A stretch of 64,000 nt of DNA, from contig CAXXXD010000002.1 in NCBI GenBank assembly GCA_963663385.2, positions 800,001 through 864,000 of the forward strand, in the 5' to 3' direction. Below are positions 5,512 through 41,565 of the stretch, in pieces (the stretch's first letter is position 1; every line of letters begins with the position of its first letter). The translations under genes were made by a program, and so were the position numbers. The notes below the pieces were generated by a model that saw only the letters and a list, made by a program, of their open reading frames with translations, was not told where the DNA came from and did not search any database. This stretch comes from Oceanispirochaeta sp. Its GTDB lineage: Bacteria; Spirochaetota; Spirochaetia; DSM-2461.

Positions 5512-6579
5512 CTAGTCCTTCACCCGTCCCAGACCAAGCATTTTCAGCATCCATCTGGGAAGGGCCTTCTCCGGATCCCTTTTCTGCAGGTTCAGATACC
5601 AGTTCCACTTTTTCAAAATGGGGATCTTGTGGGTCTCCACAAATTCGATCAGGGTACCGTCCGGATCTTCTATATAGGTAAAACGTCCGGCCGCCTCTCC
5701 CATATCAAAAGAGTTCCTGCTGTCCACTGTAAAAGGGTAGCCCATGGCATTCAGTTTTTCTCCCAGACCGTCCATATTATAAATATCAAAGCAGAGATGG
5801 ATAAAACCGGCGTCTCCCCAGTAGCGGCCTTCGAATACTTTCCCAGGAGCTCGGTCCAGGCTCTGTATCAGTTCTATGCTGCTGTAGCCGAACATCTCCG
5901 CAAAAGCCCCTTTCCTGGGTTCCGTGTGGGTCAGAAGAACTCTCCGGAATGTCCCGTCTCCACCGGGAAGGGCTGCAAGATCCTTAAAACAACCGGTCTG
6001 ATCGTAGGCAATAACCGGAAAACCCAGGGCTTCCCGATAGAGAGGCAGGACCTTGTCTATATCGCCGACCCCTACGCTGGCGCCGCAGGGACCGCCGGTC
6101 AAGCCGGGTTTTCCGTAAAAGTCGTCTCTTTGAGTCTGGACAATATCAAAAATGTTCCCGAAGGGATCCCGGACAAAGAAGTGCTCCATCCCTGCAGGAT
6201 CCTTCATAATGCCGCCCGGCAGGTCCAGTCCTTCATCACTGTAAAAGGCATAGGTCCTTTTTACATCGGGTGATTTGATTTTTCCTGTAAGAATGCCCAG
6301 GTCTCCGATCTTCAGAGGCTCCGCTGGAGAGGCTGTTTTCCGGCTGGTATACTGCCATATTTCAAAACCGCTCCCGCCAGTCAGGTTCAAAGCCAGAACC
6401 GCATCCCGCCCCTGCACCTTGTTACCCGTATACTGTGTCATCAAAGGGGCATCCGCTGCCTCCTGAAAGACAGGAATATCCATTCCAAAGTATTTTCTGT
6501 ACCACTCCCAGGCTTTGTCCCGGTCGGCTACTCCAATCCCAAGCTGCTGAATCCCGCTGATTATAATGCTCATATTCAT
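5512..6579 (-). CDS. Two-domain VOC (glyoxalase/bleomycin resistance) family protein
   Basis: QQLGIGV, FFVRDPFGNIFD, HLCF and YIEDPDGTLIEF motifs in duplicated VOC modules. Confidence 0.85.
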   Translation of the reverse strand: MNMSIIISGIQQLGIGVADRDKAWEWYRKYFGMDIPVFQEAADAPLMTQYTGNKVQGRDAVLALNLTGGSGFEIWQYTSRKTASPAEPLKIGDLGILTGKIKSPDVKRTYAFYSDEGLDLPGGIMKDPAGMEHFFVRDPFGNIFDIVQTQRDDFYGKPGLTGGPCGASVGVGDIDKVLPLYREALGFPVIAYDQTGCFKDLAALPGGDGTFRRVLLTHTEPRKGAFAEMFGYSSIELIQSLDRAPGKVFEGRYWGDAGFIHLCFDIYNMDGLGEKLNAMGYPFTVDSRNSFDMGEAAGRFTYIEDPDGTLIEFVETHKIPILKKWNWYLNLQKRDPEKALPRWMLKMLGLGRVKD

Positions 6580-6712
6580 CTTCCTTGTTCCGTGATTTGA
6601 TTTGGAGGGAAGTCCTCTGTCGTCTGTTCCGGGAGAGGCTCCATGAGAATCTGTAAATTATTGTATTCTTATTATGTCAGAAAATAAAGAAGATTCAATT
6701 AAGAGAAGCCAT

Positions 6713-7726
6713 CTAGTCAGGCTGGTAGTCCCGGCGGCTTTTAAGCATTCCCATATACTCACGGAATACCTTCTGGTAGCTGTCAAAACTGTCGGAATGG
6801 ACCATTTTATTACGGATTTCCGAAGAACCGGGCAGTCCTTTGGTGTAAGCGCACATCTGTTTCTTCATCTCGTTGACGGCTGTGGTTTCATTCTTGTAAC
6901 CGACAGCCAGTTTCAACTGCCTGAATGCTGTATTCATTTTTTCCGCAGGGGTGGGAGGAGGGAGGATTTCGCCTGTCTGCAGGTAGTGCTTTATTTCCCT
7001 GAATAGAAATGGGTTGCCAATAACCCCGCGGGCCAGCATTACACCGTCAATCCCCGTCTCTTCCAGAACCTGCTTTACTGCCTCGGGTGAAAACATATCC
7101 CCCGATCCCAGTACGGGAAGGTCTCCCATAGCGTCCTTCAGTTTTTTCAGGTGATTCCAGTCTGCAGTTCCCCCGTATCCCTGGCTCCTTGTGCGTGCAT
7201 GCATGCAAACCATGGCCGCACCGGCTCTGACAGCTTTTTCCGCTGCTTCAAGGAAGTTCAGAGTATTGGCGTCCCAGCCTGTGCGGATTTTAACAGTTAC
7301 CGGTATATCCGTATTATCCTTCATGGCTCTTACAATAGCCGCCAGGTTGTCCGTATCCCGCATCAGGGCTGAACCGGCACCGGATTTGATGATTTTGGGA
7401 ACGGGACATCCGCAGTTCAAGTCTATAACAAGGGGTTTATACGGGTTCACTTTTCTTACCGCTGCGCCGGCTGTCTCCGGACTGCCGGCAAAAACCTGAA
7501 CAGCATAGTACTCCTCAGAGTCGGCTTTTTCCAGCAGACCTTCCGTCTTCTCGCTGTTCCTGACCAGGGCCTCGCAGGATACCATTTCCGTATAGGTCAG
7601 ATCGGCGCCCATTTCAAAACAAACGGACCGGAAAGCCCGGTCCGTATAGCCGGCCAGAGGCGCCATGAATATATTCCCGGGCACACTGACGGATTCAATT
7701 TTTATCGGGTGATGCAGAGAACTCAT
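6713..7726 (-). CDS. dusB: tRNA-dihydrouridine synthase
   Basis: APLAGYTD, DLNCGCP, VTVKIRTGW, HART, GSGD motifs. Confidence 0.92.
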   Translation of the reverse strand: MSSLHHPIKIESVSVPGNIFMAPLAGYTDRAFRSVCFEMGADLTYTEMVSCEALVRNSEKTEGLLEKADSEEYYAVQVFAGSPETAGAAVRKVNPYKPLVIDLNCGCPVPKIIKSGAGSALMRDTDNLAAIVRAMKDNTDIPVTVKIRTGWDANTLNFLEAAEKAVRAGAAMVCMHARTRSQGYGGTADWNHLKKLKDAMGDLPVLGSGDMFSPEAVKQVLEETGIDGVMLARGVIGNPFLFREIKHYLQTGEILPPPTPAEKMNTAFRQLKLAVGYKNETTAVNEMKKQMCAYTKGLPGSSEIRNKMVHSDSFDSYQKVFREYMGMLKSRRDYQPD

Positions 7727-22975: not shown

Positions 22976-23154
22976 GGGATTTTCCTGGTCATTAGTTTGT
23001 CAGAGCGGGAGAATATACGGATCTGAATACAGGGATCACCTATTTGGAAGGATAGTACGGGATTAAATAATGAAAAATCCCGAAAACTTACAGGTCGATC
23101 AGCCTGTCTAGACCTACAGCATTTGATTCATATATAATAATTTCAGTTAACAAT

Positions 23155-24327
23155 ATGAGAAAATTCCCATTCACGGCCATTGTCGGCCAGGACACAATGA
23201 AATCTGCTCTGATTTTGAACGCTATCGATCCGTCCATAGGCGGAGTTCTGATCCGCGGTCACAAGGGCACTGCAAAAAGTACAGCGGTACGTTCTCTGGT
23301 GGAACTGCTTCAGCCCCTTAAAGTTGTAGAAGGATGTCCCTATCACTGTGATCCGGATGCATCCGGTTTCATTCATGACGACTGCCGGGTAAAAGCGGAA
23401 AGGGGAGAGGCACTTCCTTCAATTGAAGTCGCTGTCCCTCTCGTCGAACTGCCTCTCGGGGCAACAGAGGACCGGCTTGTGGGATCTCTGCACATTGAAC
23501 GTGCTATACACTCCGGAGAGAGGGTTTTCGAGCCCGGTCTTCTTGCTGCAGCCAACCGCGGTATACTCTATGTGGACGAAGTGAATCTGCTGGACGATCA
23601 TCTGGTGGATCTTTTGCTCGATACAGCAGCATCCGGAGTCAACCGTGTGGAACGGGAGGGGGTCTCCGAGATTCATCCGGCCGATTTTATCCTGATTGGA
23701 ACCATGAATCCCGAAGAGGGTGAACTCAGGCCTCAGTTTCTGGATCGTTTCGGACTCTGTACCAGTGTAATCGGGGAAAAGGATGTTAAGCGGCGCAGTA
23801 CCCTGATCCGCAGGCGTCTGGATTTTGAAAAGGATCCCCAGGCATTCTGTAAAAGCTGGGAAGCATCCCAGAATATGCTGCGGGAGCAGATCGCACAGGC
23901 CCGTCGGCACCTACCTGATATTTCCGTTCCGGATGAGATACTGGATAATGCTTCTGCTCTGGCTGTCAAAGTCGGGGCTCAGGGACACCGCGCGGAAATC
24001 ACCATGGTAAAAGTGGCAACGGCCCTTGCCGCTTTCCAGGAACGGGAGGCTGTTACTCCTGCGGATGTACTGACAGCTGCCACTATGGTGCTTCCCCACC
24101 GGCTTGACCGTTTTATTGAACACGGTGGCGCAGAACTCCCTAAGGAGCTGCTGGATGCGCTGCAGGAAGTTTTTGGAGAGCTTCCTTTTATTCATGAGGA
24201 AGAAGAAGCTGACGATGATTTTGATCCTATGTTTGATCCGGATGAAGATATTTTTCCCGGTTCTTTTGCCGGGGGGATGCCGATTTTTTCTTTCTTAAAA
24301 AAAAAGCACCCAGCACTGTTCTTCTAG
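23155..24327 (+). CDS. ChlI/BchI-like AAA+ chelatase subunit (zero-frame product)
   Basis: FPFTAIVGQ, Walker [21 protein letters not shown], Walker [28 protein letters not shown]; acidic linker at C-terminus. Confidence 0.93.
24297..24306 (+). promoter_or_regulatory. Slippery site A9G (TTA AAA AAA AAG)
   Basis: A_AAA_AAG heptamer in the zero frame at the AAA+/vWA junction; zero-frame stop seven codons later. Confidence 0.75.
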
Positions 24328-25106
24328 GGGATGAAACCCCTCTTCGTCTATCTCTGGAGGAGCATAATATCCTGCCGGGACGTAAACTGCGAAGAGTATC
24401 CCGCAGCGGCAGGCATTTAGCCTCCGTCCCCGTTCAGTCTGCCGATCAGATGAATGATATAGATCTTCTGGCAACCTGTATGGCTGCTGCCATGCGCCGT
24501 ACACCCGGAGAGTCTCCTTTAGCAGGCAACGGTATTGTCCTGCAGGATCTCCGTCGCCGGATTCGCGTCCAGCCGGTAAAGAAAACAATCCTCTTTTTAC
24601 TGGATGCTTCTGATTCCATGCTTCTGGAAGAGCAGATGAAACTGGCAAAGGGCGCTGTCCTGGGTCTTCTGACCCAGGCCTATCAGAAGCGTTACCGTGT
24701 TGGTGTAATTGTTTTTCATCATTGGCATGCCAGGGAGATCCTGCCTCCCACAACCAGCATTGCCCGAGCCCGTCAGGCTCTGCAGGCTGTAGCAACCGGA
24801 GGAGGGACCCCCCTTGCCGACGGCCTTCATACTGTTCTCCAGGTCGTTCGTTCAGAGCGTATCCGTCATCCCAATGATATGCCGCAGCTTATTCTGGTAA
24901 CCGACGGGAAACCCTCAGTACCCAGAACTCCCGGGGCCGATCTCAGGCAGGAAGTTCTGGAGCTTGCCGGTCAATTCCCCGCCCGGAATATTCCGGCCAT
25001 GGTACTGTCCACTGCAGAACCGGGGAAGGTCCTCCGGGAACTGGCGGTTTATCTGAAAGCGCCTCTCCGGAAGCTCCGGGATGTAGTGCATAGTTACGAT
25101 ACCTAA
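24303..25106 (+). CDS. ChlD-like vWA domain in the -1 frame, probably fused to the AAA+ part by frameshifting (~650 aa in total)
   Basis: The -1 frame is open from the A9 run through ATG 24450 to TAA 25106; DL.AT..AA, MIDAS LDASDSM, GGGTPLA, VTDGK. Confidence 0.85.
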   Translation, partial: KAPSTVLLGDETPLRLSLEEHNILPGRKLRRVSRSGRHLASVPVQSADQMNDIDLLATCMAAAMRRTPGESPLAGNGIVLQDLRRRIRVQPVKKTILFLLDASDSMLLEEQMKLAKGAVLGLLTQAYQKRYRVGVIVFHHWHAREILPPTTSIARARQALQAVATGGGTPLADGLHTVLQVVRSERIRHPNDMPQLILVTDGKPSVPRTPGADLRQEVLELAGQFPARNIPAMVLSTAEPGKVLRELAVYLKAPLRKLRDVVHSYDT

Positions 25107-28254: not shown

Positions 28255-29196
28255 TTAATGGAATAAAGCTCCAATACTCTCTCCTGTATGAATCCTTTTT
28301 ATTGCTTCCGAGAAAAGAGGCGCTATGGTCAGGCAGTGCAGTCCGGTAAAGACTTTTGTCTCCGGGATATGGACCGTGTTTGTTACTACAACAGTATCGA
28401 TCGGGGATGCTTTCAGGTTCTCCACGGCCCTTCCGCAGAGTACCGGATGTACCGCTCCGGTTACAATTTTTTTTACACCGGTTTTTTCAAGGGTTTCCGC
28501 TGTTTTGCAGATGGTTCCCCCTGTTGATATTTCATCATCAAAGACAATGGCTGTCCGGTTTTTCACATCTCCCACGACTTCTCCCTGGATAACTTCCGTA
28601 TCGCTGATCCGTCTTTTATCGATAATGGCCAGGGGAACCCCAAGCTGCTGGGCAAAACGCCCGGCTCTTTTGGCTCCTCCCGCATCGGTGGCTACCGTAA
28701 CCAGATCCGGGAGTTCGTAATGTTCCCTGAAATAGTCAGCCATGATGGGAATGGCTGTCAGATGATCAACGGGTACACTGAAAAAACCGTGAACCTGGTC
28801 GGAGTGAAGGTCCATGGTCAGAATGCGGCCGGCTCCTGATGCCTTGAGCAGGTCCGCTATAAGACGGGCTGTGATAGAGATCCGGGGGGCGTCCTTCTTG
28901 TCAGAGCGGGCATAGGAGTAGTAGGGGATTACCGCTGTAATCCGCCCGGCGGAGGCGCTCCGCAGGGCATCCAGGGTAATCAGCAGAGTCATCAGGTTCT
29001 GGCTGACCGGTTCTGTCAGGGGCTGTACGACAAAAACATCCCTTTCCCGTACATTCTCCTGAATCTGTACGGAAAGGTTATCGTTGGAAAAGCGGGAGAC
29101 TTCCATCGGGCTTAATTCGATGCCCAGATTCTGACATATCTGTCCGGTAAGATCCGGATTGGCACCGCCGCAGAAAACCTTCAGCTTATCTTTCAT
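28255..29196 (-). CDS. prs: Ribose-phosphate pyrophosphokinase
   Basis: VIPYYSYARSDKK, MDLHSDQ..GFF, DAGG.KRA, DKRR, DDEISTGGT. Confidence 0.95.
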   Translation of the reverse strand: MKDKLKVFCGGANPDLTGQICQNLGIELSPMEVSRFSNDNLSVQIQENVRERDVFVVQPLTEPVSQNLMTLLITLDALRSASAGRITAVIPYYSYARSDKKDAPRISITARLIADLLKASGAGRILTMDLHSDQVHGFFSVPVDHLTAIPIMADYFREHYELPDLVTVATDAGGAKRAGRFAQQLGVPLAIIDKRRISDTEVIQGEVVGDVKNRTAIVFDDEISTGGTICKTAETLEKTGVKKIVTGAVHPVLCGRAVENLKASPIDTVVVTNTVHIPETKVFTGLHCLTIAPLFSEAIKRIHTGESIGALFH

Positions 29197-31025
29197 GTAT
29201 TTTTTCCCAGTACCTTAAGGGCCAGTTCCACCTTGCCGAAAGGAGCGCTGACCTGAAATCCCTGAACGTATTTCTCTATGGACTCGCATATCTCAGAGGC
29301 TATCCTGATACCTTCAGCAATACCTTCTTCCCTTGTTTGGCAACGGCTCATCCTTTCCATGACTGAGTCGGGAACTTCCACTCCCGGTACTTCATTCCGC
29401 ATAAACTCGGCGTTCTTGTAACTCACAAGGGGCCATACCCCGGCAATAACGGGGATCTCCTTAAAGGCTGCAGCCTTTTCCAGAAAGTTCAGAAGAGCCA
29501 TGGGATCAAAAACAGGCTGGGTAATGGCGAATTCGGCCCCTGCTTCGATTTTTTTACGGTACCGGTCCAGTTCCAGTCCGGGAGAAACGGCACAGGGATT
29601 GGCACCCACTCCTGTAAAGATAGATGTGGGGGGCGACAGGGGATTCCCGCCGAAATCCCGCCCGTGGTTCATATTATGAACAACCTGTGTCAGACCTATG
29701 GCATCTACATCAAAAACCCCCGTAACCTCGGGGTAATCCCCCGATTTGGGCGGATCTCCCGTAATAACCAGGAAGTTCTTTAATCCAGCGGCAACACTGC
29801 CCAGGATGTCCGACTGCATCCCCAGCAGATTCCGGTCCCGGCAGGTGTAGTGCAGAACCGCTTCTATTCCGGCGTCTTTCTGTACCGCCGCTGCAGCAAT
29901 CATGGGAGACACCCTGGCGCTGGCCCGGGGGCCGTCGGGAATATTGATGGCATCGACGCCGTGATAGGCACAGATGCGGGCTTTATTGATAAACGGGGTA
30001 AGATCTGTGCTCCTGGGCGGGGTAATCTCGATGGAGGTAACCTTGACCCCCTGTTTAAGCAGGCAGGCCAGACGGGATTTTTCCTCCTGGGGAACGGGCT
30101 GGAAATCGCCGTCCGATTGTACGACGGCTTTTATCTCTATATGTTTTTTGACAACACTGATGGATTTTACAGACCGGGCGGCAATCCTTATATGATCGGG
30201 GGTGGTCCCGCAGCAGCCGCCTACGCCCCTGACCCCGAGCTCCATGAATTTCTTGGCGTATTCGGAAAAGTATTCGGGGTTGGAGAGATAGATCATGCGC
30301 CCGTCCAGCTCCTTGGGAAACCCCGCATTGGGCATAATAATGACCGGTTTTTTCGTATAATCCATTGCCTCCTGAACCCATTCATAAAGATGGGAGGGGC
30401 CGGTTCCGCAGTTCAGGCCGATAATCTGTACGGCAGGGCTTTTATTCAGCTTGTCCATGACAATCCGCAGGCTCTCCCCCCCGGGAGTATACCCTTCTTC
30501 GGTCAGGGTGAAGGAGGTACAAACAGGCAATCCTGCAGAGGAAACCGCTTCTGCCGCCAGAAGGAGTTCGGCGCTGTGGCTGAATGTTTCCAGAAGGATC
30601 ATATCCACACCGCCTTCCTTCAGGGCTTCCGCCTGCTCTTTGAATACGGCGGACAGCTCCTCTTTCCTGTCATCCGTTACTATCTGGCCTGACTTGAGAC
30701 AGGGCCCCATGGATCCCGCCACGTAGGCGTCGTCTCCGGCTTCTTTACGGGCCAGCACCGCCGCCGCCTTATTTATCTCGGCGACCTTGTCGCCCAGACC
30801 GTGTTCGGTCAGTTTTATCCGGTTGGCTCCAAAACTGTTTGTTTCAAGTACATCCGCGCCGGCTTCTTTATATTCCCTGTGTATTTCACTAACTATATCC
30901 GGGGAGATCAGGTTTAATTCGTCATAACAGCGGTTGATGAAGATTCCCTTGCTGTACAACATTGTACCCATGGCGCCATCGAATACCAGGGGCTGCTCTT
31001 TTATTCTTTCAAGAATGGGTTTCAT
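29193..31025 (-). CDS. Bifunctional homocysteine S-methyltransferase / methylenetetrahydrofolate reductase (YitJ-like)
   Basis: DGAMGT, GLNC, GGCCGTTP; MTHFR part EITPP, NIPD, HYTCRDRN, ITGDPP, ITQPVFD. Confidence 0.93.
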   Translation of the reverse strand: MKPILERIKEQPLVFDGAMGTMLYSKGIFINRCYDELNLISPDIVSEIHREYKEAGADVLETNSFGANRIKLTEHGLGDKVAEINKAAAVLARKEAGDDAYVAGSMGPCLKSGQIVTDDRKEELSAVFKEQAEALKEGGVDMILLETFSHSAELLLAAEAVSSAGLPVCTSFTLTEEGYTPGGESLRIVMDKLNKSPAVQIIGLNCGTGPSHLYEWVQEAMDYTKKPVIIMPNAGFPKELDGRMIYLSNPEYFSEYAKKFMELGVRGVGGCCGTTPDHIRIAARSVKSISVVKKHIEIKAVVQSDGDFQPVPQEEKSRLACLLKQGVKVTSIEITPPRSTDLTPFINKARICAYHGVDAINIPDGPRASARVSPMIAAAAVQKDAGIEAVLHYTCRDRNLLGMQSDILGSVAAGLKNFLVITGDPPKSGDYPEVTGVFDVDAIGLTQVVHNMNHGRDFGGNPLSPPTSIFTGVGANPCAVSPGLELDRYRKKIEAGAEFAITQPVFDPMALLNFLEKAAAFKEIPVIAGVWPLVSYKNAEFMRNEVPGVEVPDSVMERMSRCQTREEGIAEGIRIASEICESIEKYVQGFQVSAPFGKVELALKVLGKNT

Positions 31026-31101
31026 TAATCTCTCCTTGGATTTGTATAATTGAATTATCCATAATTATTGAGAATTGATCAAAGGGGATCGAAATTCTCT
31101 T

Positions 31102-33549
31102 TCAGACCGCAAAATATTTGGCCTGCGGGTGATGGGCCACAAGAGCCGAAGTACTCTGTTCCGGAACCATTTCATAGTTTTCCGTCAGGCTGATCCCTAT
31201 CCTTTCGGGTTTCAGCATGGCAAAGAGCAGTTTGTGCGCACTGATATCGGGGCAGGACGGGTAGCCGAATCCGTAGCGGGACCCCTGGTATTTCTGAGTG
31301 ATATAGCCCTGAATCCCTTCCGGTTCACTTCCGGCAATCCCCATTTCCCGGCGCATCCTGCGGTGCCAGTACTCTGCCAGCGCATCAGTGAATTCCACAC
31401 TGAAGGCATGCAGCATCATGTAGTCATGGTAGGCATCCGCTTTATAGAGTTCCGCGGTCCTTTTACTGACCTCTTCTCCGATCGTTACAACGAAAAGGCC
31501 CGCCACATCGCCCCCCTCTTCAGCGTTTTTAAAATAGTCGGACAGGCAGATAAACGGGGCTTCATTCTGGCGGGGAAAGTCAAAGTCGATTTCCTTCCCC
31601 TCATGGGTCATAACAAGGTGGTTCCCCCGGCTTTCGCAGGGGAAGTACCCGTAGGCCGCTGAGGGGGTAATCAGTTTTTCATCCCTGAACTGCCGGCAGA
31701 ACTCCTGATAGAGGGGTTCCACTTCGGTCCGGATCAGCTTTTCATACTCCCCGTTTGTCATTTTTCCCCGGCGGTATCCCCAGCGGCCCCGGAAAAGGGC
31801 CTGTTTATTAATCAGGGAAAGGACTTCTTCAATATCTATATCCGTAACAATGCGGTCTCCCGTGAAAGGCGGTTCCGGGACTGTGTTATCCCGGGTAATT
31901 TCCGATTTCTGTCCCGGAAGAACGGATTTCTCACCGGCCGTTTCTTCCCAGAAAGCCGGTTCCAGTTTTCCCTCTTCGAAGTCCCGGACTTTTTTCAGGG
32001 CGTCAAAGGCATCCGAGTTGTATACCACCTGGGGTGTATAGTTCGGAACGCAGCTCCGGGCAACAAATTTTCTTGTAAGGGCGGCGCCTCCCAGAAAGAT
32101 GGGGGCTTTGAGTCCCGCTTCTTCGTACTGGGGTATACTCTCCTTCATGACCATGGCGGATTTTACCAGCAGACCGCTCAGCCCGATGATATCCACATCG
32201 TATTCAAGCGCCTTTTCAATAATGGTCTCCGCAGGTACCTTGATCCCTATGTTAAAAACTTTATACCCGTTGTTGCTGAGAATGATATCCACCAGGTTTT
32301 TCCCTATATCGTGAACATCGCCCTGAACGGTAGCCAGGAGAATTTTTATCCGGTTGTCATCGGCGGATCTTTCCATCAGGGGTTCCAGGTAGCGGACTGA
32401 TGCTTTCATTGTCTCTGCGGACTGTAACACGAAGGGCAGCAGGATTTCTCCTTTTCCGAACAGTTCCCCCACATGGCGCATGGCCGGGATCAGGATGTCA
32501 TTGATGATATTGATAGGCGTATACCGTTCCAGTATCATATCCAGAAGATCTTCCAGATCGTCCTTGTTGCCCGTTAACACTTTGTAGAAAAGCTGAGTTT
32601 CCAGGGGCTGCCACTTCTGGCTCTCCTGTCCGCTGTCTTTTATCTTTGCGTTGGAGAAGTGATTGATAAAAAGGAGGAGGGGAGACTTCTCTTTATCTTT
32701 AACCCTGTCGTAAAGCAGGTCAAGGCAGACTTCCCGGTCCTCTTCGCTTATGGATGCCAGGGGGAGGATCTTGGCCGCATCGATGATGCAGGAGTCCAGT
32801 CCGGCTTCCAGCGCTTCATGCAGAAATACCGCATTCAGAATCCGTCTGGACGCCATGGAGAGGCCGAAGGAGATATTGCTCAGGCCGAGGGTCGTCAAAC
32901 AGCCGGGCAGTTCCTTTTTTATCCGGCTGATGGCATTCATGGTCTGAACCGCCGCATCCCTCAGATTCTCATCCCCTGCGCCGACCGTAAATGTCAGGGC
33001 ATCGAAAAGGATGTCCCGGGGACGGAGGCCTATTTCATCAACGGCAATGGAATAAATCCTTCTGGCCACTTCCACTTTCTTTTCTGTTGTCATGGCCATA
33101 CCGTCTTCATCTATGGTCAGGGCTACTACCGCGGCTCCATATTTTTTGACCAGTTTGAGTATGCGGTAGATGTTTTTTCCCCCGTCTTCCAGGTTCACAG
33201 AGTTGATGATACAGCGGCCGGGGTAGAGCTGCAGTCCCCGTTCGATTACCTCCGGAGTGGTTGAGTCAATCATCAGGGGTGTTTTGAGGGAACCCGCAAA
33301 AAGCGGGATCAGAGTGGACATATCCGCCATCTCATCCCGTCCCGCATAGGCGCTGCACAGATCCAGAACATGGGCCCCCGCAGCCTCCTGGGCTCTGGCC
33401 ATGGCCAGGCAGCTGTTAAAGTCATCCGCCAGGAGGTACTCCCGGAATTTTTTTGATCCTGTTGAGTTGCATCTCTCCCCGATAATAAGGGGTTTGATCG
33501 GCTGAATCAGATCGACCGATTCATAAAGGCTTGCTACTGACGGGTTCAT
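31102..33549 (-). CDS. metH: Cobalamin-dependent methionine synthase, pterin + B12-binding + reactivation domains
   Basis: GAGGT RBS; IIGERCN, MIDST, NSVNLEDG, GLSNISFG, DVHDIGKN, SGLL, RYGFGYPSCP, PEQSTSA. Confidence 0.93.
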   Translation of the reverse strand: MNPSVASLYESVDLIQPIKPLIIGERCNSTGSKKFREYLLADDFNSCLAMARAQEAAGAHVLDLCSAYAGRDEMADMSTLIPLFAGSLKTPLMIDSTTPEVIERGLQLYPGRCIINSVNLEDGGKNIYRILKLVKKYGAAVVALTIDEDGMAMTTEKKVEVARRIYSIAVDEIGLRPRDILFDALTFTVGAGDENLRDAAVQTMNAISRIKKELPGCLTTLGLSNISFGLSMASRRILNAVFLHEALEAGLDSCIIDAAKILPLASISEEDREVCLDLLYDRVKDKEKSPLLLFINHFSNAKIKDSGQESQKWQPLETQLFYKVLTGNKDDLEDLLDMILERYTPINIINDILIPAMRHVGELFGKGEILLPFVLQSAETMKASVRYLEPLMERSADDNRIKILLATVQGDVHDIGKNLVDIILSNNGYKVFNIGIKVPAETIIEKALEYDVDIIGLSGLLVKSAMVMKESIPQYEEAGLKAPIFLGGAALTRKFVARSCVPNYTPQVVYNSDAFDALKKVRDFEEGKLEPAFWEETAGEKSVLPGQKSEITRDNTVPEPPFTGDRIVTDIDIEEVLSLINKQALFRGRWGYRRGKMTNGEYEKLIRTEVEPLYQEFCRQFRDEKLITPSAAYGYFPCESRGNHLVMTHEGKEIDFDFPRQNEAPFICLSDYFKNAEEGGDVAGLFVVTIGEEVSKRTAELYKADAYHDYMMLHAFSVEFTDALAEYWHRRMRREMGIAGSEPEGIQGYITQKYQGSRYGFGYPSCPDISAHKLLFAMLKPERIGISLTENYEMVPEQSTSALVAHHPQAKYFAV

Positions 33550-34469
33550 CTGTTTACCTCTCGGGCTGCCGGAACAATACCTTCCAGCTCTTTTTTCAGG
33601 GCGGCTATATGAGCCGGGGTAGAGCCGCAGCATCCCCCTGCAATGGAAACGCCCCATTTTTCCACAAACAGCTTCATTTCAGAAGCATAGCGGGCCGGGC
33701 TCATGGGGTAGCAGGTCCTGCCGTCCACAATTTCCGGCATCCCCTGGTTGGGAAGGCAGGAAACCCGTCCGTTCCAGTTGTGGCTGAGCCAGTGGATACT
33801 GGACTGCATATCCTCCGGACCGGTGGCACAGTTCAGGCCGAATGAAAAAAGAGGGAAAGGCTCCATTATAGCTGCTGCTGCGGCTATATCGGTTCCGGCC
33901 AGCATGGTTCCGGTTTTTTCTATGGTGATGGAAACCATGACCGGTACCTGCTTTTCCAGTTCTTCCATAACCTCGAAAGCACTGATCAATGCGGATTTCA
34001 GCTGCAGTATATCCTGAACCGTTTCCAGAATGATCAGATCAACCCCTGCTTTTATCAGAGCCTGTATCTGTTCCCTGTACGCTTTATTCAGATCAGATGG
34101 ATCGATATGCCCCAGGGAGGGCAGTTTTGTACCGGGGCCGCAGGATCCTGCCACCCAGCCGGAACCGAATTGCCTGACCGCTTCCCTGGCAGCCTCTACA
34201 CCGGCTTTATTGATTTCTGCAACCCTGTCTTCCAGGCCGTACTCTCCCAGAACTATCCGGTTAGCTCCAAAGGTGTTGGTCTCTATGATATCCGCTCCGG
34301 ATTCCAGGAATTCCATGTGCATGGCTGTTATCTTCTCGGGGCAGGAGAGGTTAAGGTACTCGTTGCATCCTTCATGTTTACCCCAGAGATCCGGAGTGAT
34401 ATTCATATTCTGAATACTGGTCCCGCAGGCTCCGTCCAGAAGCAGCAGAGGTTTTTCTGTTAATTCCAT
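33546..34469 (-). CDS. metH: Methionine synthase homocysteine-binding domain (separate N-terminal module)
   Basis: LDGACGT, ETNTFG, GPGTKLPSLG, GLNCATGP, PNQGMP, GGCCGSTP; ATGA overlap with the downstream module. Confidence 0.9.
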   Translation of the reverse strand: MELTEKPLLLLDGACGTSIQNMNITPDLWGKHEGCNEYLNLSCPEKITAMHMEFLESGADIIETNTFGANRIVLGEYGLEDRVAEINKAGVEAAREAVRQFGSGWVAGSCGPGTKLPSLGHIDPSDLNKAYREQIQALIKAGVDLIILETVQDILQLKSALISAFEVMEELEKQVPVMVSITIEKTGTMLAGTDIAAAAAIMEPFPLFSFGLNCATGPEDMQSSIHWLSHNWNGRVSCLPNQGMPEIVDGRTCYPMSPARYASEMKLFVEKWGVSIAGGCCGSTPAHIAALKKELEGIVPAAREVNR

Positions 34470-39757: not shown

Positions 39758-41565
39758 AGGGTGCTCTCTGCACAGCCCCGTCTGATTCGTTCAACGGCGA
39801 AAGAGTCCTTCGACTTTTTCGCCTTTTTTTTAAGCGCCATCATTGCTCCGGTAAAATCTTCCAGAGTACAGGGTTCTGTCTCTTCAATCTCCATTACAGC
39901 GGCGCTGACCGTCAGGAGAGGGAAATCCCGGGGCACATCCTGACGGTCTCTTGCCCTGATAAACCCTTTTTTCCTGTCCTCTTCGCTGTAATAGGACTTC
40001 ACATCCTCTTTGAAGAAAACCTGTATCTGTCTGACCGTATCCTCTATAGGGGTTTCCCGCGGTCCATCATTAAAAACAACCAGAAAATCATCTCCTCCGA
40101 TATGCCCGATAAAATCCCTGTTCAGGTTCAGCTCTCTTTTAAGTATTTCCGCAAACAGGATTATCACCCTGTCTCCCAGGCGAAAACCGTAAACATCATT
40201 GAAAGGCTTAAAGCTGTTGAAGTCGAAATATACGACCGTCCCGTTCTGTTTCTTTTCCTTTAAAAGCTGTTTCAGATGACTGTTAATGGCATAATTCCCC
40301 GGCAGGCGGGTGAGGGGATTCTGGTCTCTTGCCTTGGCCACCTCCTGCTCATTCACCAGATCAAGCAGACCCGCCGGTTCCAGGATGCCAAGATAGGCTC
40401 CGTTCCGGGTTATGGCCACTCCGTTCGATATGCTCATACTGGCAGTAATCTTCAGTATGGAATCCAGATTTGTCGTTACCTCTGTCGAAGGGATCCTGGT
40501 CAGAAAGGATTCCAGACCCTTAGTATGGTTATGATTCCGGAAGAGGGCGATCCCGAAGGGAGAATAGACGTAATTCCTGAGGTCCTTCTCCTGAATACAG
40601 CCGACAGGGCTGTTGTTCCTGTCTACAACGGGAAGCAGCCTGAGATCTTCTCTCTGAAACCGTTTCAGGATTAATTCGCTGTCAGCGTCCAGTGTAATTG
40701 GCCGCGTTTTAGTCAGTCTGCTTTCCAGGATACAGCTCTGTTCATCCCTTTTCCGGCGGCGGAAGTCCTTACCTGACCTGTCAAGGATGTACTGCTGTTT
40801 CAGTTTGCAGATGTCCTGTTCGGGACGGGCTATATGGTATCCCTGAAGCATATCGCAGCCTATCATCCGGCAGAAATTCATCTCTTCCTCGTTTTCAATC
40901 CCCTCGGCGACGACTTTGATGCCCATGATATGAGCCATGTTGACAGTATTTTCCGCCAGAAGTTTTTTTTTGGAGTCATTGTGAATCCCTTCAATGAAAA
41001 ACCGGTCAATTTTCAGAACATCCGGGTTGGAGTGATACAGGAGCTGCAGACCGGAATACCCTGATCCGTAATCATCAATGGCAATCCTGAAATTCTGCCT
41101 TTTATACTCTTCCAGAATCCGGTTGGCTCCGGTGTAAGAGTTGAACTCATGGCGTTCGGATATTTCAAAAAAAAGGTTGGACTTTTGAATCCCCATTTTC
41201 TGGAGCAGTTCATTTGTGTTTCCCGGCAGGTAATCCGGCATTTCCAGAACACGGTTGTCCAGATTGTAAAACAGGGTTCTGTTCTGCATCCCCCGTATGG
41301 ATTTGAACTTTTCAATGGCTTTACGCCTCAGTTCCAGGTCCAGAGCGTAAATAACCTGATCTGAAAAGGCATCGTCAAACAGGGCGAATATGCTGTCATA
41401 ACCGCACAGATCCCAATTCCGCAGGAGAGCCTCATAGCCGAATACTTCACCTGTCGTACTGTTTACAATGGGTTGAAAAGCATAGTCCAGTACCTCGGAT
41501 TTCCTGTTCCATTTCTCTGTCATGGTCTGTATTTCCATTTTGAATATATCGTTTAGCACAAGCAT
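39751..41565 (-). CDS. EAL-CBS-GGDEF c-di-GMP enzyme
   Basis: FQPI, YEALLR, EISE, DDYGSGYS, KIDR, AEGIE, QGY; CBS-like region; NPLTRLPG, FKPFND.YG..GD, GGDDF. Confidence 0.92.
   Translation of the reverse strand: MLVLNDIFKMEIQTMTEKWNRKSEVLDYAFQPIVNSTTGEVFGYEALLRNWDLCGYDSIFALFDDAFSDQVIYALDLELRRKAIEKFKSIRGMQNRTLFYNLDNRVLEMPDYLPGNTNELLQKMGIQKSNLFFEISERHEFNSYTGANRILEEYKRQNFRIAIDDYGSGYSGLQLLYHSNPDVLKIDRFFIEGIHNDSKKKLLAENTVNMAHIMGIKVVAEGIENEEEMNFCRMIGCDMLQGYHIARPEQDICKLKQQYILDRSGKDFRRRKRDEQSCILESRLTKTRPITLDADSELILKRFQREDLRLLPVVDRNNSPVGCIQEKDLRNYVYSPFGIALFRNHNHTKGLESFLTRIPSTEVTTNLDSILKITASMSISNGVAITRNGAYLGILEPAGLLDLVNEQEVAKARDQNPLTRLPGNYAINSHLKQLLKEKKQNGTVVYFDFNSFKPFNDVYGFRLGDRVIILFAEILKRELNLNRDFIGHIGGDDFLVVFNDGPRETPIEDTVRQIQVFFKEDVKSYYSEEDRKKGFIRARDRQDVPRDFPLLTVSAAVMEIEETEPCTLEDFTGAMMALKKKAKKSKDSFAVERIRRGCAESTLY

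Follow-up and report, generated by a model that had tools for sequence, protein, structure and literature searches.

Organization of the locus

The window, that is, the whole 64,000-nucleotide stretch of Oceanispirochaeta sp. DNA analyzed here, carries on its forward strand an open reading frame (23155..24327) for a 390-aa ChlI/BchI-type AAA+ protein, assigned by domain, motif and structure matches, which starts at ATG 23155, ends in an acidic linker and closes with the TAG at 24325-24327. Before this stop the frame reads TTA AAA AAA AAG, in which nine adenines (A9) form a slip site of the type T-A9-G (24297..24305, forward strand). The -1 frame stays open between 24246 and a stop at 25104-25106; from 24300 to 25106 of the forward strand it encodes a vWA domain preceded by the end of a ChlD-type linker, and for this part no start is conserved. 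The third frame meets a stop at 24332. The predicted lengths are 390 aa for frame 0, 650 aa for a net -1 shift and 392 aa for the third frame. The initial annotation had described an AAA+ frame passing through an acidic linker into A9 and the stop at 24327, a -1 frame open from the run into a complete vWA domain, and expected products of 390 and about 650 aa; the frames and the predicted lengths were borne out.

The frame 0 product contains Walker A GHKGTAKS (residue 35), Walker B LYVDEVN (138), MNPEEG (184), LDRFG (196) and GHR (277). In profile searches, the N part matched positions 1-312 of TIGR02442 (E 1e-140) and the C part in the -1 frame matched positions 408-626 (E 1e-45), and Pfam placed an AAA lid and Mg_chelatase in the former and VWA in the latter, the MIDAS of which is intact (DASDS, GGTP, TDG). 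A ChlI-like N part and a ChlD-like vWA C part are thus adjacent and in order, with different frames. The closest solved structures are those of BchI/ChlI together with the BchD vWA domain; the predicted model of the short product matched BchI (1g8p) and ChlI (8osg/8osf) best, with residues 346-373 of the monomer model at pLDDT <50. The predicted complex of the linker peptide (345-390) with the vWA part scored 0.02 against a mark of 0.32, which bears neither way. Database annotation records a relative from Oceanispirochaeta crateris with 73% identity over residues 250-390. Databases give the short product only, and the 650-aa protein is missed.

A sigma-70-like promoter candidate, TAGACC-18-TATAAT, lies at 23109..23138 of the forward strand (10/12 consensus match), from a scan that returned 5 sites in the region versus 1.8 ± 1.4 in shuffled sequences. 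Within 23109-23157, its -10 box is perfect and ends 16 nt 5' of the ATG, and there is no Shine-Dalgarno (SD) sequence, so that transcripts from this candidate would likely have a very short leader, roughly 10 nt long, that lacks an SD. Residues 61-77 (23335-23385) form a Cys/His-rich insert, of which C61, C65, H74 and C77 are invariant in 22/22 close proteins and lost in some clade members; judging from these residues, the insert is possibly a metal site. Downstream of the chlD-type gene lies miaB, convergent to it.

Conservation of the break at the A9 run

Homopolymers are error-prone, and the break might involve no recoding at all, if the assembly is wrong here, if the tract is phase-variable at the DNA level, if the gene is a pseudogene or if two genes with separate starts are present. 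The A9 run was bridged without another letter or a gap in the contigs of 4/4 sequencing runs from three samples and three studies, although X1 and X4 are one sample, X1, X2 and X4 are possibly the source of the assembly, and X6 is a thin contig from the third study. As far as contigs show, which drop rare variants, A9 is not an assembly error.

A survey of the class with P0001 as query (E 1e-50) gave matches in 68/401 genomes, from which 70 loci were examined, with one short second match left out. These loci comprise 49 plain -1 breaks, two breaks with a second downstream indel (G064 and G041), 17 in-frame genes and two genes cut by contig ends. All 51 broken loci are broken at a poly-A run, which is A9 in 37 and A10 in 14 and in none shorter; the run starts at codon position 0 in 28, position 1 in 8 and position 2 in 15. 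A T precedes 36/37 of the A9 runs, and 50/51 loci have either T-A9 or A10. In the closest clade, whose 14 orthologues share 72-78% identity in the N part with our gene, 14/14 keep YTA AAA AAA AAG with a stop 28 nt after the run start. Since CTA and TTA together make up 8.9% of Leu codons in this genome, this retention exceeds chance. The initial annotation had proposed to look for the break and the A run in orthologues, and both are kept, in 51/70 class loci and throughout the closest clade.

In a quick tree search, the 51 broken genes fell into one group of 54 rows, whose SH-aLRT of 88 is not strong; its other members are G342's in-frame gene with A11 and two loci from deltaproteobacteria. 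The codon register of the run changed several times on this tree, and the 51 broken genes, being kin, do not count as independent cases. The A11 gene of G342 (L071) is an in-frame member of the clade defined by the linker motif described below; judging from its sequence, normal reading would give the long form and a slip the short form. A second in-frame motif-bearing protein is the database entry P0036.

Whether the downstream part is expressed from a start of its own was judged from the ATG at 24450, which lies 50-51 codons 3' of the run and for which the lack of an SD had been pointed out in the initial annotation. The lack is real, yet as an argument it is weak, because the main ATG at 23155 has no SD either. 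More tellingly, an ATG was present at that codon in 0/14 close orthologues, and an independent start at ATG 24450 was rejected since the ATG is not conserved. In the 15 genes of the closest clade, the coding signature, i.e., amino acid conservation with synonymous variation, follows frame 0 up to the run and frame -1 after it, and DxSxS was intact in 41/41 of the -1 frames examined. The conserved break and run, the switch of the signature, the absent ATG and the intact DxSxS make it unlikely that the break is an error, that the gene is a pseudogene or that the vWA part is a gene apart. The in-frame G342 and P0036 and the second indel in 2/51 loci fit an absence of recoding, whereas A9 in contigs of three samples, the broken state of 51/52 motif-bearing class loci, the DxSxS of the vWA frame and the missing ATG all stand against it, and we consider it very unlikely. 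Programmed recoding of some kind is, in our judgment, very likely. The claim that programmed slippage yields a short ChlI-like and a long ChlD-like protein is well supported by conservation and corresponds to the published fs-chlD arrangement.

Four loci have further lesions. In L103 (G064), L094 (G041) and L129, the A9/A10 site is intact and a second frame change, by error or decay, follows downstream. In L109 (G252), at 6143-6721, the -1 frame is only 193 aa long, and the vWA domain is cut before the last MIDAS Asp.

A linker peptide specific to the clade

In all 51 broken class genes, a PGxxAxG peptide is encoded 13-16 codons before the run, counted from the motif proline, as compared with 1/17 in-frame class genes (G342, A11). 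In our gene the motif lies in the linker peptide FPGSFAGG (24253..24276, forward strand). P368, G369, A372 and G374 are invariant in 31/31 aligned rows, and within the closest clade PGxxAxG is conserved as protein, not as DNA. Of the 79 named loci compared from other phyla, 40 are in frame, 26 are broken and 13 are cut or unpaired; the peptide occurs at the junction in 2 of the 79 and is missing there in 24/26 broken genes; matches to the motif pattern in L144 and L172 were dropped, as their positions are away from the junction. The peptide may serve in docking or, as a nascent peptide, stimulate the shift. We found no mention of it in the accessible parts of the published fs-chlD accounts (PMC3711429, PMC9227772). 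In the same comparison, L139, L152, L162 and L191 are chlD-type genes that are in frame, carry A9/A10 in the linker and have no chlI next to them.

Candidate RNA stimulators

The initial annotation had pointed to a small hairpin at 24326-24341, which exists in the sequence, yet is not the minimum-energy fold. That fold is a predicted stem-loop of 19 pairs (24317..24364, forward strand; -21.6 kcal/mol, z -2.6), and it starts 10 nt after the A_AAA_AAG that lies in register at 24300-24306. Over the 51 loci the mean z was -0.34, like that of control windows, and z fell below -2 in 5/51 loci versus 4, 4 and 1 of 51 in the control windows. A conserved 3' stimulator was therefore rejected, for the small hairpin as for the stem-loop, which shows no conservation among orthologues. 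An internal SD of the dnaX type has a spacing of about 10-14 nt upstream. None was found at stimulator distance, the nearest G-rich stretch ending 20 nt before the run; as this stretch is too distant and varies synonymously, not being kept as DNA, an internal SD stimulator was rejected as well.

Slippage by polymerase or ribosome

Provided that recoding occurs, we lean somewhat towards slippage by RNA polymerase as the main route, because the constant feature of the site is a run of at least nine, and the genome avoids A9 and longer runs in its genes. In 2607 long ORFs of this genome, the observed/expected ratios were 0.90 for A8, 0.35 for A9 and 0.13 for A10, and those of T runs were 0.91 for T8 and 0.29 for T9. 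The gene therefore shows what is expected of transcriptional slippage, namely at least nine A or T in a row in a genome whose genes avoid runs of this length, although A9 avoidance cannot tell transcriptional from replication slippage. For a tandem ribosomal heptamer, 6-7 A's would suffice. According to the accessible text of PMC1088944, nine is the usual threshold for polymerase slippage. The genome also has both tRNA-Lys(CUU) and tRNA-Lys(UUU), and two Lys tRNAs are a condition that PMC5009743, in the part available, links to polymerase slippage in Thermus dnaX.

The same two products could also arise mainly by ribosomal -1 frameshifting on overlapping A_AAA_AAA and A_AAA_AAG, aided by the 3' stem-loop or by PGxxAxG acting within the exit tunnel as part of the nascent peptide. 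The length of the run is compatible with ribosomal shifting, because any A9 holds an in-register A_AAA_AAA. Moreover, AAG, the most shift-prone ribosomal site, is kept as the last codon of the run in 15/15 closest-clade genes, the stem-loop of this copy has a z of -2.6, and the motif proline is at a distance within the range given, in the material available, for the nascent-peptide stimulator of fungal antizyme. In other phyla, 4/26 broken genes (Chloroflexota) have only A7 and one has A8, all in ribosomal register, and such sites would favor ribosomal shifting there, as judged from their sequences. Ribosomal shifting is likewise the published reading, the family being termed translational frameshifting in the accessible part of PMC9227772. 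Against it, AAG ends the run in 22/51 broken class loci and is lacking in the other 29, whereas A9 or A10 is present in 51/51, and no class run is shorter than nine; the dnaX-type A_AAA_AAG, which the initial annotation had taken as the key signal, is consequently not the feature that is kept. In addition, this genome shows no avoidance of in-frame A_AAA_AAG (338 against 269), the two Lys tRNAs are present, the hairpin is not conserved, and the peptide is missing at the junction in nearly all broken genes of other phyla, as counted above. We regard a mainly ribosomal shift as the less probable route, though one to be taken seriously, and comparable contributions of both routes as improbable. 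In E. coli reporter tests of three fs-chlD members, values of 63, 40 and 10% are given for A11, A9 and A7, respectively, in the accessible text of PMC3711429, and these measurements did not, as far as that text goes, separate the two slippage mechanisms. A literature search that did not cover subscription journals found no paper separating polymerase from ribosome slippage for chlD.

No large subunit detected

A class I chelatase needs ChlH or CobN as its large subunit in addition to its I and D subunits. A PF02514 (ChlH/CobN) search of this genome, which is 98% complete, gave 0 matches, the control of the search giving a signal in 5/14. Across the class, PF02514 was found in 11/401 genomes, each time within ~3 kb of an in-frame chlD-type gene. 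Among the 51 genomes with a broken gene, 49 have none and two have it at a separate chlI-chlD-cobN locus. The genome contains one strong ChlI-type match and no separate chlI, and it has genes of the anaerobic route, namely two CbiK, CbiD and HemB; as two CbiK genes are present, cobalt insertion needs no class I enzyme.

The two products were described in the initial annotation as the two subunits that a class I chelatase needs, a description that is not supported, as no large subunit was found. A reading in which the products are the I and D subunits of a working class I chelatase, with a large subunit that the assembly lacks or that has diverged beyond detection, would agree with the closest solved structures, BchI/ChlI and the BchD vWA domain, and with the domain order, which equals that of TIGR02442. 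It is disfavored by the distribution of PF02514 in this genome, in the broken-gene genomes and around in-frame chlD-type genes, as well as by the anaerobic-route genes CbiK, CbiD and HemB, and we think it improbable. As no CobN/ChlH was found in the genome, the products do not make up a complete class I chelatase. By the large-subunit test the enzyme is likely not a class I chelatase, and by analogy it would work like the motor of these enzymes.

No conserved gene neighbors that could hint at a client were found among 42 loci >4.3 kb (of 52) compared, in which the sole sizeable multi-family neighbor cluster consists of generic ABC ATPases. Other MoxR-like AAA+ and vWA genes of this genome (L003-L006) are unrelated to the break. 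In L081, L083, L084 and L121 (family f16) and in L102, an in-frame chlD and a chlI are adjacent in genomes without detected CobN/ChlH, a layout that corresponds to the 'stage 2' arrangement in the accessible part of PMC9227772.

Relation to known systems

The phenomenon is not new, and the gene is a new member of the fs-chlD family, published since 2013. Frameshifted chlD genes in other prokaryotes, to which the initial annotation had correctly referred, appear in the accessible texts as the fs-chlD or 'magnesium chelatase' recoding cluster (Antonov et al. 2013, PMC3711429) and as a list of 169 fs-chlD genes (Kuznetsov et al. 2022, PMC9227772); PMC8211752, as far as available, merely cites the 2013 work. 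Like these genes, ours has an AAA+ ORF and a vWA ORF that would be joined through a poly-A run where the frame shifts by -1, giving a short and a long product, and the point of frame change has the same kind of conserved, A-rich slippery sequence, which is A9/A10 in all 51 broken class loci. Its 390 and 650 aa fit the size ranges stated in the available text (250-500 aa for the short and 500-800 aa for the long product). According to the same partial sources, a downstream RNA structure is usual in fs-chlD genes, not obligatory; here it is present in this copy and not conserved in the class sample. Both products have been shown in E. coli for three other members, as the available text has it, whereas here they are predicted. 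The 'stage 1' group of PMC9227772, which includes Spirochaeta thermophila, is described in the accessible part as having no large subunit and a function unknown, and is said there to lack anaerobic B12 genes, which this genome has. Further differences from the fs-chlD accounts are a run never shorter than nine and the clade-specific PGxxAxG.

As available from PMC1088944 and PMC5009743, Thermus thermophilus dnaX resembles our gene in its A9 run, in the two Lys tRNAs and in a single gene that supplies a long and a short AAA+ subunit. In Thermus the long product is what the template frame encodes, whereas here slippage would be needed for the long form, as in Shigella mxiE, and slippage there was shown by experiment. 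Escherichia coli dnaX is similar to this copy in the in-register A_AAA_AAG and the downstream stem-loop, in contrast to the lack of an SD at stimulator distance and the inconstancy of hairpin and AAG among orthologues. With ChlID/CobST, CbbQO and NorQD, the products share a clade-7 AAA+ fold, intact motifs and a vWA domain with MIDAS; unlike them, they come with neither a detected ChlH/CobN nor a client gene in the neighborhood. Photosynthetic ChlD has a degenerate AAA part, whereas the long form here would carry the full ATPase motif set.

Proposed mechanism

The explanation we favor, by a modest preference, is a chlD-type gene split at a conserved A9 run and yielding two proteins by programmed slippage, mainly of the polymerase. 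Standard reading would give the 390-aa ChlI-like ATPase, and a net -1 shift the predicted 650-aa ATPase-linker-vWA protein, the most likely route to the shift being the addition of one A by RNA polymerase in part of the transcripts. Both products are likely made, as judged from the conservation of both frames. An AAA+ ring would be built from the short form, and the long form, the rarer of the two, would supply its vWA domain to the ring pore, in the way that one vWA domain engages the pore of the AAA+ hexamer in CobST, CbbQO and NorQD according to the accessible parts of 10.64898/2026.10.09.757910 and 10.64898/2026.07.21.739949; how often slippage occurs would determine the ratio of short to long forms. 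Since no ChlH/CobN was found, the ring is likely, by analogy, a MoxR/vWA-style remodeller of a protein client and not a tetrapyrrole chelatase. A bolder proposal, which we hold only tentatively and rate as rather doubtful, is that the fs-chlD genes of this spirochaete clade do not involve ribosomal recoding of a chelatase: the ratio of ring subunits to vWA-bearing subunits in a stand-alone AAA+/vWA remodelling motor would depend on polymerase slippage at A9/A10, with the invariant PGxxAxG helping to engage a non-tetrapyrrole client. If true, this would revise the published mechanism and assign a function to the 'stage 1' genes. The locus is a clean test case for polymerase versus ribosome slippage in fs-chlD genes, and a test case for the role of a ChlI/ChlD-like motor without a large subunit.

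Elsewhere in the window, the sole other run of nine is a T9 at 40963-40971. Three adjacent ORFs at 29193-34469 of the reverse strand resemble what we take to be separate modules of B12-dependent methionine synthase.
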